This document shows positions 5,473 to 6,670 of a stretch of DNA of 12,139 nt, in pieces. The first letter of the stretch is position 1, and every line of letters starts with the position of its first letter. A model generated the notes under the pieces. That model was given only the letters and a program-made list of their open reading frames with translations, did no database searches and was not told where the DNA came from. Source of the DNA: Candidatus Heimdallarchaeota archaeon (GTDB lineage Archaea > Asgardarchaeota > Heimdallarchaeia > Heimdallarchaeales > Heimdallarchaeaceae); NCBI GenBank assembly GCA_019057375.1, contig DXJF01000082.1, positions 1 to 12,139 on the forward strand. The letters run 5' to 3'. The translations under genes and the position numbers were made by a program.

Positions 5473-6670
5473 ACTCTATTTTAGCAAATTCTGTCTTGAG
5501 TTCCTCTTCGTCTTTTTCATCCTCTTCTGGAGAATCCAGACCAAGACCAATCTCTAGAGCTAGCTCGCGATGTTTAGCTTCTTCCTCAACATCACAAACT
5601 CCAAAGGGACCTAAGGAGAAGTGAGTTTCAGTCATAGGCAACCAACCACAATCAGTAATTAAGGCTCTTCTAGCATTAGGGGCATCGTACTGATTGCGAA
5701 TCTTGCTAGTAGCTCTGCGAAGCCATAATCTGATATCAGAGGCATGTCCTAAAACAAAGCCTCCACTGGGTAAAACCTTATCCATTGCAGTTGCGAAAGG
5801 ATCCGGGTTTGCCATAACTTGGTTAGTATAAAGAACAGCGAGATCCCATGCTTCTGCTATTCTCATGAGTAAATGCAATACTCTGTTGAGATGTTTTTGT
5901 CTATCTGCTAATTGTCCTAATCCTCCGTATTCTGCTCTAAAGGGGTCCATTAGGCTGTCAACGATAAGCAATTTCACTTTGTTCTTAGCAATAATTCTTC
6001 CTGCTTCTTTAAGAGCTAGTTCTATTTGCGATAAAGTTCTAGTCGCTGCAACCATGAATTTTCTAGTATCAATCTTGTTATTTGGAATGTTGTGAGTGTA
6101 TTTGTAATAAGATAAAATTTGTTTAAGTCTCTGGGAATTAAAAGATCCTTCTGTATCCAACCAAATTATGCCTGATTCAAGCCCTCCGTATTCTTCTGGA
6201 AGTAAACAGTTGGCAGTGATAGTATAACAAAGCTGAGTTTTCCCTGACTGGGGTGCTCCATAGAGCTCAACGAAAGTTCCTGTAGGAATACCTCCTTGAA
6301 GAAGGTCATCCAAAGCTTTAGCACCTGTTTTAATCTTTGACCTTACAGTCTCTAATTCTTCTCTCTCCTCTAATGAAAGGAAGATTTTACCTTCTTGTTT
6401 TGTTTTAAATTGATCAAGTAAGAGCGATGCTGTTGCTTCAGTAATACCAGGTAGTTCCTCAAGCTGTTTTTTGGTTAAGGATTTGATACCTCTCGGATCA
6501 ACTATGCCTTCAGTATTGAGGACTTTATGAACTCTCTTTTTCATAGAATCAGAGAGACCAGTAATCCCTGACAAGAAGTCTTGAAGAGCATCTTTCTCTT
6601 CTTTAACAGTCTTTTTCTTACTAGAAGCAGTAGATTTACTGTCTTCTATATTATCTTGTGTATTAGCCAT
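5471..6670 (-). CDS. radA: RadA/Rad51-family recombinase, divergent paralog with N-terminal HhH domain and acidic C-terminal tail
   Basis: N-terminal HhH (LEELPGITEATA), TG..LD.LLQGGIPTG, Walker A GAPQSGKT, DTEGSF, Walker B LLIVDS, L1 FRAEYGGLGQLADRQ, TNQV, GGFVLGHAS and D..WLP...F.L...GV.D all align by eye with RadA/Rad51. The family is certain, but orthology to the main RadA is doubtful. Confidence 0.93.
   Translation of the reverse strand: MANTQDNIEDSKSTASSKKKTVKEEKDALQDFLSGITGLSDSMKKRVHKVLNTEGIVDPRGIKSLTKKQLEELPGITEATASLLLDQFKTKQEGKIFLSLEEREELETVRSKIKTGAKALDDLLQGGIPTGTFVELYGAPQSGKTQLCYTITANCLLPEEYGGLESGIIWLDTEGSFNSQRLKQILSYYKYTHNIPNNKIDTRKFMVAATRTLSQIELALKEAGRIIAKNKVKLLIVDSLMDPFRAEYGGLGQLADRQKHLNRVLHLLMRIAEAWDLAVLYTNQVMANPDPFATAMDKVLPSGGFVLGHASDIRLWLRRATSKIRNQYDAPNARRALITDCGWLPMTETHFSLGPFGVCDVEEEAKHRELALEIGLGLDSPEEDEKDEEELKTEFAKIE

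Follow-up and report, generated by a model that had tools for sequence, protein, structure and literature searches.

RadA-4, a full-length but non-canonical RadA paralog encoded near a Hel308-like helicase in a Heimdallarchaeial genome

The stretch of DNA analyzed here (the window, 12,139 nt of contig DXJF01000082.1, numbered along its forward strand) comes from the 3.47-Mb genome, in 159 contigs, of a Candidatus Heimdallarchaeota archaeon, and carries on its reverse strand an open reading frame (ORF), 5471-6670, that translates to a 399-amino-acid (399-aa) RadA paralog (P0001), to which we refer as RadA-4. A sequence-only reading of this DNA had described a RadA in which residues for filament formation, ATPase activation and DNA pairing are systematically altered. 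The locus thereby raises the questions (i) whether these alterations are conserved features of a paralog or are simply those of the main RadA of the lineage; (ii) where RadA-4 belongs among archaeal and eukaryotic recombinases; and (iii) whether it is itself a strand-exchange enzyme. We determined that RadA-4 is a full-length but non-canonical RadA paralog. Because of its residue pattern and the analogy with RAD51 paralogs and RadB, we hold that, on balance, it would assist homologous recombination as an ATP-dependent accessory subunit rather than catalyze strand exchange.

Motifs and predicted fold of RadA-4

RadA-4 is a member of the Pfam Rad51 superfamily, matching PF08423 with 181.6 bits (gathering cutoff 22, E 2e-53), with residues 112-360 covering profile positions 7-243 of 244. 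It does not reach the cutoffs of the NCBIfam RadA equivalogs (NF003301: 216.9 bits, cutoff 259; TIGR02236: 194.5 bits, cutoff 361.15) or of the RadB model TIGR02237 (97 bits, cutoff 172.4), and its Pfam KaiC match (28.7 bits) is limited to the Walker A stretch, residues 113-152. In pairwise phmmer comparisons with PDB chains, the scores were 158 bits for RAD51 and 156 for RadA, followed by XRCC3 (89), RAD51B (82) and RAD51C (75).

Human RAD51 numbering was taken from the phmmer alignment to PDB human RAD51, and residue counts at the RAD51 positions were obtained from a background set of 147 RadA/Rad51-like representatives. According to this alignment and to MAFFT alignments, all four coordinate ranges that the sequence-only reading had assigned to altered motifs are exact (Table 1). 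The polymerization motif F86TTA89 aligns, as claimed, to F97LSL100: the phenylalanine is kept, the alanine at +3 has become leucine, and neither residue (F97, L100) varies within the RadA-4 family. At the A89 position, alanine or glycine occurs in 132 of the 147 background sequences and leucine in four. In loop L1, where GRG had been read as GLG, R235 does align to L251 (5918-5920); this leucine is fixed in the RadA-4 family, and the background set has arginine there in 122 sequences and leucine in nine. R245 and R257 are retained. Leucine also occupies the K313 position, at which 115 of the 147 sequences have arginine or lysine and leucine is not among the six commonest residues.

The Walker A motif, GAPQSGKT in place of GEFRTGKT, retains K144 and T145, while E128, F129 and R130 are replaced by A, P and Q. 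The loss of F129 stands as it had been described (F or Y in 114 of the 147 sequences, with P absent from the six most frequent residues, all of them present four or more times). The accompanying argument from R130 is weaker than stated, as 91 of the 147 have glycine there. Since glycine at R130 and proline at V273 (117 of 147) are the archaeal norm, we dropped both R130 to Q and V273 to P as losses and do not count them as changes.

For the ATP cap, MAFFT aligns DSPxLPE with D340CGWLPM, in agreement with the reported change of DSP to DCG; the aspartate and the distal proline are kept and the Ser-Pro pair is lost. The S317 position has serine in 121 and cysteine in four background sequences, and the P318 position has proline in 118 and glycine in two. 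A different assignment, YDAP (329-331), arises at the end of a local phmmer alignment, where it is paired with RAD51 YDSP, and was rejected as spurious; D340CGWLP is the better cap because the Pfam match reaches as far as residue 360 and because LP-x-x-E-x-x-F, which comes next, is conserved in the global alignments.

The ATPase site, conversely, is complete. K144, T145, D238, E174 (of DTEG), Q284 (of TNQ) and H309 (of GHAS) are present and invariant in the family, as the sequence-only reading had stated for the catalytic K, E, Q and H. The background set has glutamate at the catalytic Glu position in 145 of 147 sequences and histidine at the H294 position in all 147. Loop L2 is nearly invariant in the family and two residues longer than in the canonical RadA of the same genome, and AlphaFold2 puts a helix at 322-327 within the stretch that carries a family-specific insertion (Table 1). 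The stretch comprising F205, V207, A208, A219 and I227, which we take to correspond to the Phe-socket residues of RAD51, is invariant or nearly so in the family alignment.

The Pfam profile HHH_5 matches residues 45-89 with 22.8 bits, below its cutoff of 27. The AlphaFold2 model (mean pLDDT 80.8, and ~90 over residues 28-91) comprises a helical N-terminal domain, a RecA core, an additional C-terminal helix and an acidic disordered tail. In Foldseek it matches protomers of human RAD51 filaments best (TM 0.85-0.87, normalised to target), and the alignments to full-length RAD51 span 315-337 columns. The predicted fold is that of a RAD51 protomer, including a genuine N-terminal domain; the pLDDT over residues 28-91 and the superposition on full-length RAD51 bear out the helix-hairpin-helix (HhH) domain that had been claimed. 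At the opposite end, canonical RadA stops ~35 residues before the C-terminus of RadA-4, the tail of which ends, in the RadA-4 family, in a conserved TEFAxxE.

Recombinase paralogs of the genome and the DC[G/A]W clade

In the following, f1 denotes the window's own family, f3, f4 and f7 are other Heimdallarchaeial families, and g1, g2, g4 and g5 are genera. A genome scan identified four genes in the source genome that combine an HhH N-terminal domain with a Rad51 core. One of them, on contig C3, is a canonical RadA (RadA-1) that scores 433.6 bits with NF003301 and 413.5 bits with TIGR02236, above both cutoffs, and has the motifs GEFRTGKT, FRNA, GRG and DSP. The sequence-only reading had proposed a search for such a second, canonical RadA, and its presence on another contig identifies RadA-4 as a paralog and not the main RadA of the lineage. 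The motifs of the C3 protein are intact, and the substitutions are fixed traits of the RadA-4 family. RadA-4 is the most divergent of the four and has the lowest scores against RadA models.

The remaining two genes differ in their motifs. A 455-aa paralog (RadA-2; contig C102, L009:1126-2493, forward strand) carries its HhH N-terminal domain twice in tandem, and its motifs are of the canonical kind (GPFRSGKS, FINA, GRG, DSP); its clade is found in f1, f3 and f4 and groups weakly with eukaryotic Rad51/Dmc1 (92/74). A 318-aa paralog (RadA-3; contig C117, L010:1471-2427, reverse strand) lacks the polymerization phenylalanine (PVTA) and has GKE for GRG in L1, ALG for the GG of L2, and DSS as ATP cap. 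Its clade is supported at 100/99 and present in f1, f3, f4 and f7, and judging from its motifs it is a second degenerate paralog type. The genome also encodes, on contig C12 (L012:1318-1956, reverse strand), a 212-aa RadB-like, core-only RecA-family protein with GPPNSGKT and ITNQV but without an N-terminal domain, which scores 51 bits with Pfam Rad51. Two relatives with better assemblies, G015 (a single contig) and G011 (50 contigs), have these four paralogs as well, and because the single-contig relative is one of them, contamination was rejected as the origin of the additional genes. Other Heimdallarchaeial families have five to six Rad51-like genes per genome (L073-L076; G084 contigs C117 and C11; G054 contigs C4 and C2), a number of which diverge strongly and have GPPASGKT, GPAASGKT or GSPTVGKS as Walker A.

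Roughly 35 clusters (90% identity level) match RadA-4 at 39-95% identity, and hardly any carry a label other than Heimdallarchaeota or Heimdallarchaeaceae. A profile search of 1.84 billion representatives returned only ~5 clusters above the generic RadA score level. In a scan of 400 Asgard genomes, strong matches were found only in f1 (23-24 of 31 genomes) and f3 (two of three), with intermediate scores in f7, which belongs to the same class. Across 20 orthologs (39-95% identity), 69 alignment columns are invariant and the altered motifs are themselves conserved (F[LMQK][ST]L, G[AS]PQSGKT, GGLG in L1 and DCGWLP in the cap), as are the hairpin insert, the lengthened L2 (NPDPFATAMDKV) and the acidic tail with TEFAxxE. 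RadA-4 is under strong purifying selection: the ratio of nonsynonymous to synonymous substitution rates (dN/dS) is 0.085 at a dS of 0.37 against a 95%-identical ortholog, and 0.03-0.10 in the remaining within-genus pairs, in which dS is saturated. More than 20 genomes, two of them single-contig, have the gene with an unbroken reading frame.

The phylogeny suggested by the sequence-only reading was built for RadA, Rad51/Dmc1 (including fungal Rad51 identified by name) and Asgard paralogs, as a maximum likelihood tree of 82 rows (LG+C20+F+G4 PMSF); the eukaryotic paralogs RAD51B, RAD51C, RAD51D, XRCC2 and XRCC3, which it had also named, are not in this tree. The f1 RadA-4 clade is supported at 100/100 and forms, together with f3, an f4-type group (420-450-aa proteins, including those of family f4) and the metagenomic sequences P0033 and P0035, a clade of 22 rows with 97/99 support. 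Across a branch supported at 97/92 lie all canonical archaeal RadA together with Rad51/Dmc1 of eukaryotes, RadA-2 and RadA-3. The f7 sequences attach to the clade at 62/23. Members of f1, f3, the f4-type group and f7 have in common the L1 leucine and an ATP cap DC[G/A][W/F]L, and we define the DC[G/A]W clade by the L1 Arg to Leu change, this cap, and a position on one side of the supported branch. RadA-4 is a member of this Heimdallarchaeia-only clade. Because f7 and f3 members keep FxxA and f7 members also keep a canonical-type Walker A, GEYRTGKT, the motifs seem to have degenerated stepwise, with the changes in L1 and the ATP cap coming first.

The clade members of f7 (L083:9372-10685, L084:9490-10839, L087:9246-10604) have charged C-terminal tails of ~100 aa that all end in KKSKVPA. 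This terminal motif and the TEFAxxE of the window's family look like lineage-specific docking peptides. As a lead only, the language-model neighbors of RadA-4 are eukaryotic RAD51B-, RAD51C- and RAD51D-like clusters, and those of the canonical RadA of the same genome, used as a control, are canonical archaeal RadA. A mobile-element origin was rejected in view of the absence of integrase or phage genes nearby, a branching order that follows the genera, and a stable locus.

The locus and the neighboring helicase

The 730-aa Ski2/Hel308-like helicase encoded in the window (Table 1) scores 158 bits against a Hel308-type model with a cutoff of 887 and has a faint POLQ-helical match. A second helicase of ~750 aa is encoded elsewhere in the source genome, on contig C126, and the 730-aa protein is, as far as its sequence tells, distinct from the ordinary Hel308 of the genome. 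Its SWIM-type finger aligns across the f1 and f7 helicases as CxC-x(5-8)-CxH. We also noted two stand-alone frames of 128 and 149 aa, L089 (G000:C92:13005-13097) and L090 (G000:C39:15357-15443), that match Pfam SWIM at or near its cutoff. An identification of the helicase as HamB was rejected, the HamB and Hel308 models scoring alike, as expected of generic Ski2-like similarity. A defence system was likewise rejected: the PADLOC matches to RadA-4 are weak (mad8 at 9.8e-6, and IetA) and no HamA-like partner was found.

In close relatives (L016, L022), the RadA-4 gene directly follows the helicase gene, so the NosD-type gene that lies between the two in the window looks like a local insertion. 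The distance between helicase and paralog varies from adjacency or less than 5 kb in g1 to 8 kb in g2 and 17 kb in g5, and in f7 the two are 2-3 kb apart. In each of two f7 genomes that were searched individually, the paralog-linked helicase is the best genome-wide match to the helicase of the window, and the f7 flanking genes include no gene family, besides the pair, in common with f1 neighborhoods. Both the paralog and the helicase gene are missing from six g1 genomes. This suggests that helicase and paralog are a functional pair and candidate partners.

Upstream of the helicase gene, and overlapping its start by 8 nt, is a ~1040-aa gene of which the window contains the end. In the relatives (L016:426-5752, L022:539-5746), it is preceded by genes whose products are 218 aa, 305-348 aa (a KaiC/AAA_25-like ATPase) and 158 aa long, and these upstream genes overlap at their ends; together with the helicase and the paralog they may form one operon. 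RadA-4 may in addition have a candidate promoter of its own, the TATA-box-like element TTTATATAT, from which a leaderless or short-leader mRNA would start; a sigma-70-type promoter scan was set aside as inapplicable to archaea. On the other side, a giant gene for a secreted Ig-repeat protein begins with a TTG 10 nt past the RadA-4 stop codon, with a Shine-Dalgarno (SD)-like GGGGAG in the gap. The giant gene adjoins the paralog in g1, in g2 and on the P0033 contig (a 49%-identical homolog), and is three genes away in g5.

Table 1. Coordinates of RadA-4, its parts and its neighbors in the window
Feature	Position	Strand	Basis
RadA-4 gene, 399-aa RadA paralog	5471-6670	-	ORF list; Pfam Rad51 2e-53; below both NCBIfam RadA cutoffs
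TATA-box-like element TTTATATAT	6694-6702	-	Read from sequence, ~28 nt upstream of RadA-4 ATG
Lys-rich disordered N-terminal tail, residues 1-24	6599-6670	-	AlphaFold2 pLDDT <50
Helical N-terminal HhH-type domain, residues 28-91	6398-6589	-	Sub-threshold HHH_5; AlphaFold2 helices; Foldseek
FxxA variant F97-L-S-L100	6371-6382	-	Aligned to human F86-T-T-A89
Rad51/RecA ATPase core, residues 112-360	5591-6337	-	Pfam PF08423; genome scan match at same coordinates
Walker A G138APQSGKT145	6236-6259	-	Aligned to human G127EFRTGKT134
D172-T-E-G175 with catalytic Glu E174	6146-6157	-	Invariant in family alignments
Walker B strand K233LLIVDS239	5954-5974	-	D238, S239 invariant
Loop L1 E247YGGLGQLADRQ258	5897-5932	-	Alignments to RAD51/RadA
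TNQ (Q284) followed by loop L2 VMANPDPFATAMDKVLPSGG	5759-5827	-	Alignments
G308-H-A-S311, H309 = human H294	5738-5749	-	Invariant in family
Residues 321-333 TSKIRNQYDAPNA with 9-residue family-specific insertion, beta-hairpin before ATP cap	5672-5710	-	MAFFT
ATP cap D340-C-G-W-L-P345 in place of DSPxLP	5636-5653	-	Global alignments
C-terminal helix (361-374) and acidic disordered tail, residues 361-399	5474-5590	-	AlphaFold2, alignments
Ski2/Hel308-like helicase, 730 aa	9641-11833	-	Pfam DEAD, Helicase_C
SWIM-type CxC-x8-CxH finger of helicase, residues 531-544	10202-10243	-	Aligned across two families
NosD/right-handed beta-helix protein, 907 aa	6906-9629	+	Between helicase and paralog in window
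C-terminal end of ~1040-aa gene, no known family	11826-12137	-	Overlaps helicase start by 8 nt
Secreted Ig-repeat protein, >1820 aa	1-5460	-	Big_1, Big_3_5, CarboxypepD_reg; signal-peptide-like N-terminus

Possible functions and relation to known systems

RadA-4 retains all residues for ATP binding and hydrolysis and the polymerization phenylalanine, and the socket, as we presume it to map, is hydrophobic and conserved. What it has lost is the L1 arginine, the interface-stacking aromatic residue of Walker A, the Ser-Pro of the ATP cap and the equivalent of K313, a residue of the secondary DNA site of RAD51 (PMC7618403). In RadA polymerization, an invariant Phe enters a hydrophobic socket as a 'ball', and RadB is a mediator of this process (PMC5480776). 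As an accessory subunit, RadA-4 would dock on RadA, or on its own kind, via the ball-and-socket interface, and could then have a part in nucleating, stabilizing, capping or remodeling presynaptic filaments, in the manner of RadB and the eukaryotic RAD51 paralogs. Its probable partner is the neighboring Hel308-like SWIM helicase.

Several points weigh against this interpretation. Since the polymerization phenylalanine, socket, L2, R245 and R257 are conserved, RadA-4 could still form filaments autonomously or pair DNA with its altered loops, and base stacking is still within reach of an L1 residue that is hydrophobic, as in RAD51 paralogs (PMC7618403). Long-branch attraction may account in part for the position outside canonical RadA, the clade stems measuring 0.5-1.1 substitutions/site and the outgroup being long as well, and the tree joins f7 to the clade weakly (62/23), so that this link depends chiefly on the signature they have in common. 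The linkage to the helicase comes from two independent lineages only, and the f7 pair is convergent, with a transporter gene in between; in g4 the two genes are on different contigs, and a search with the window's helicase as query found no ortholog in f4. A complex prediction for RadA-1 (residues 60-374) with RadA-4 (residues 25-378), with alignments supplied, gave an ipSAE of 0.00 twice, which counts neither for nor against binding.

Some of the same observations would also fit a specialized second recombinase, which we think unlikely but worth serious consideration. Such an enzyme would self-polymerize via a co-evolved FxxL ball and a remodeled socket, be insulated from RadA-1, and carry out its own pairing or annealing with the altered L1 and L2 loops; in its favor, F97 is invariant, the presumed socket stretch is invariant or nearly so, L2 is nearly invariant, the set of ATPase residues is complete, and the N-terminal domain is retained. 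However, it would have to do so with leucine where 122 of the 147 background sequences and all canonical sequences inspected have the L1 arginine, with leucine at the K313 position, and without the Ser-Pro of the cap or the Walker A aromatic, in a genome that already has RadA-1 and RadA-2 with intact motifs. Less probable still is that RadA-4 is a dedicated cofactor of the SWIM Hel308-like helicase (a loader, processivity factor or annealing partner) that acts largely independently of RadA filaments. The maintenance of the gene pair in f1 and f7 while the surroundings differ, the joint absence of both genes from six g1 genomes, and the conserved motifs at the tail ends, typical of partner-binding peptides, all speak for this; yet joint loss is trivial for adjacent genes, the pair is unlinked in g4, and f4 has the paralog clade with no helicase ortholog detected there.

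The giant gene, which is directly downstream in g1, g2 and the contig of P0033 but three genes off in g5, together with the 10-nt gap and its SD-like GGGGAG, could point to a role outside recombination that is tied to the Ig-repeat secreted protein, for example as an ATPase with a regulatory or assisting part in a surface structure. We consider this very improbable, as RadA-4 keeps the HhH N-terminal domain, the RAD51 fold and the DNA-contact arginines and has no membrane or secretion features, and as the adjacency is missing in f3, f4-type and f7 members and at three other loci. Practically no weight attaches to a duplicate in decay or neutral drift, or to an artefact of assembly or contamination: although RadA-4 has the lowest RadA-model score of the four paralogs and the contamination estimate of the genome bin is 4.95%, this explanation is refuted by the conservation data, namely a within-genus dN/dS of 0.03-0.10, a frame that stays intact in over 20 genomes (two of them single-contig), and 69 invariant columns across orthologs at 39-95% identity. 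We retain the reading of RadA-4 as a probable accessory subunit.

Eukaryotes need non-catalytic RAD51 paralogs, several of which are tumour suppressors, for the building and capping of RAD51 filaments, and RAD51B, RAD51C, RAD51D and XRCC3 keep the N-terminal domain. In archaea, the helpers known so far, RadB and aRadC, are truncated to the core alone, the aRadC/KaiC-like proteins and the Sulfolobus paralogs being KaiC-like and without an N-terminal domain, whereas RadA-4 keeps the full Rad51 architecture. It shows degeneration of the kind seen in RAD51 paralogs in the archaea most closely related to eukaryotes, and members of sister families appear to preserve intermediate steps of it. RadA-4 may thus offer a tractable, single-polypeptide prokaryotic model of a recombinase turning mediator. 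More speculatively, and in our judgment with a rather small chance of being right, a full-length, paralog-type Rad51 lineage that partners a SWIM Hel308-like helicase would already have been present in Heimdallarchaeia in the form of the DC[G/A]W clade, as an archaeal counterpart or even a forerunner of the mediator systems of eukaryotes, RAD51-paralog/HELQ and Shu. HELQ is a homolog of Hel308, and the Shu system combines an SWS1-type SWIM protein with Rad51 paralogs. If this were true, the split between a catalytic recombinase and a helper paralog that keeps its N-terminal domain would predate eukaryogenesis. RadA-4 and its conserved SWIM Hel308-like neighbor together open to in vitro testing how HELQ, SWIM proteins and RAD51 paralogs came to cooperate.

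Among archaeal systems, Matsuo et al. 2025 described a RadA duplication in Heimdallarchaeia and Gerdarchaeia, with two clades and several RadA-like genes per bin; they analyzed RadA-like clades that group with canonical sequences, 'highly divergent' ones having been removed (PMC12722695). From those clades the DC[G/A]W clade is set apart by description, its motif pattern and helicase linkage not being described there (PMC12722695), and in the searchable literature we found no description of the clade, its signature or its linkage to the helicase. The aRadC/KaiC-like proteins, Sso0777 and SsoRal are cited in two papers (PMC5480776, PMC2175319) as accessory proteins of the RecA family in archaea with an influence on presynaptic filaments; in contrast to the aRadC/KaiC-like proteins, RadA-4 resembles KaiC only over the Walker A stretch. 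RadB of euryarchaea is, like RadA-4, a RadA paralog that accompanies RadA; it has been proposed to promote or stabilize RadA polymerization (PMC5480776), has been modelled as a filament cap and is devoid of an N-terminal domain (PMC7618403). RadA-4 differs from it in having both an N-terminal domain and a C-terminal extension and in scoring below the TIGR02237 cutoff, and the source genome holds a separate RadB-like gene, the 212-aa one without an N-terminal domain.

In eukaryotes, RAD51 filaments are capped by the XRCC3 complex, and RAD51 paralogs stack on DNA with hydrophobic residues instead of basic ones (PMC7618403); the BCDX2 paralog complex is bound by HELQ (PMC13623763). By sequence, RadA-4 is nearer to RAD51 and RadA (158 and 156 bits) than to the eukaryotic paralogs compared, XRCC3, RAD51B and RAD51C (89, 82 and 75 bits), and there is no indication of a multi-paralog complex for it. 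Like the eukaryotic RAD51 paralogs (RAD51B, RAD51C, RAD51D, XRCC2, XRCC3 and yeast Rad55-Rad57), however, it combines an intact nucleotide site with non-canonical pairing and interface residues, and it coexists with a canonical recombinase.

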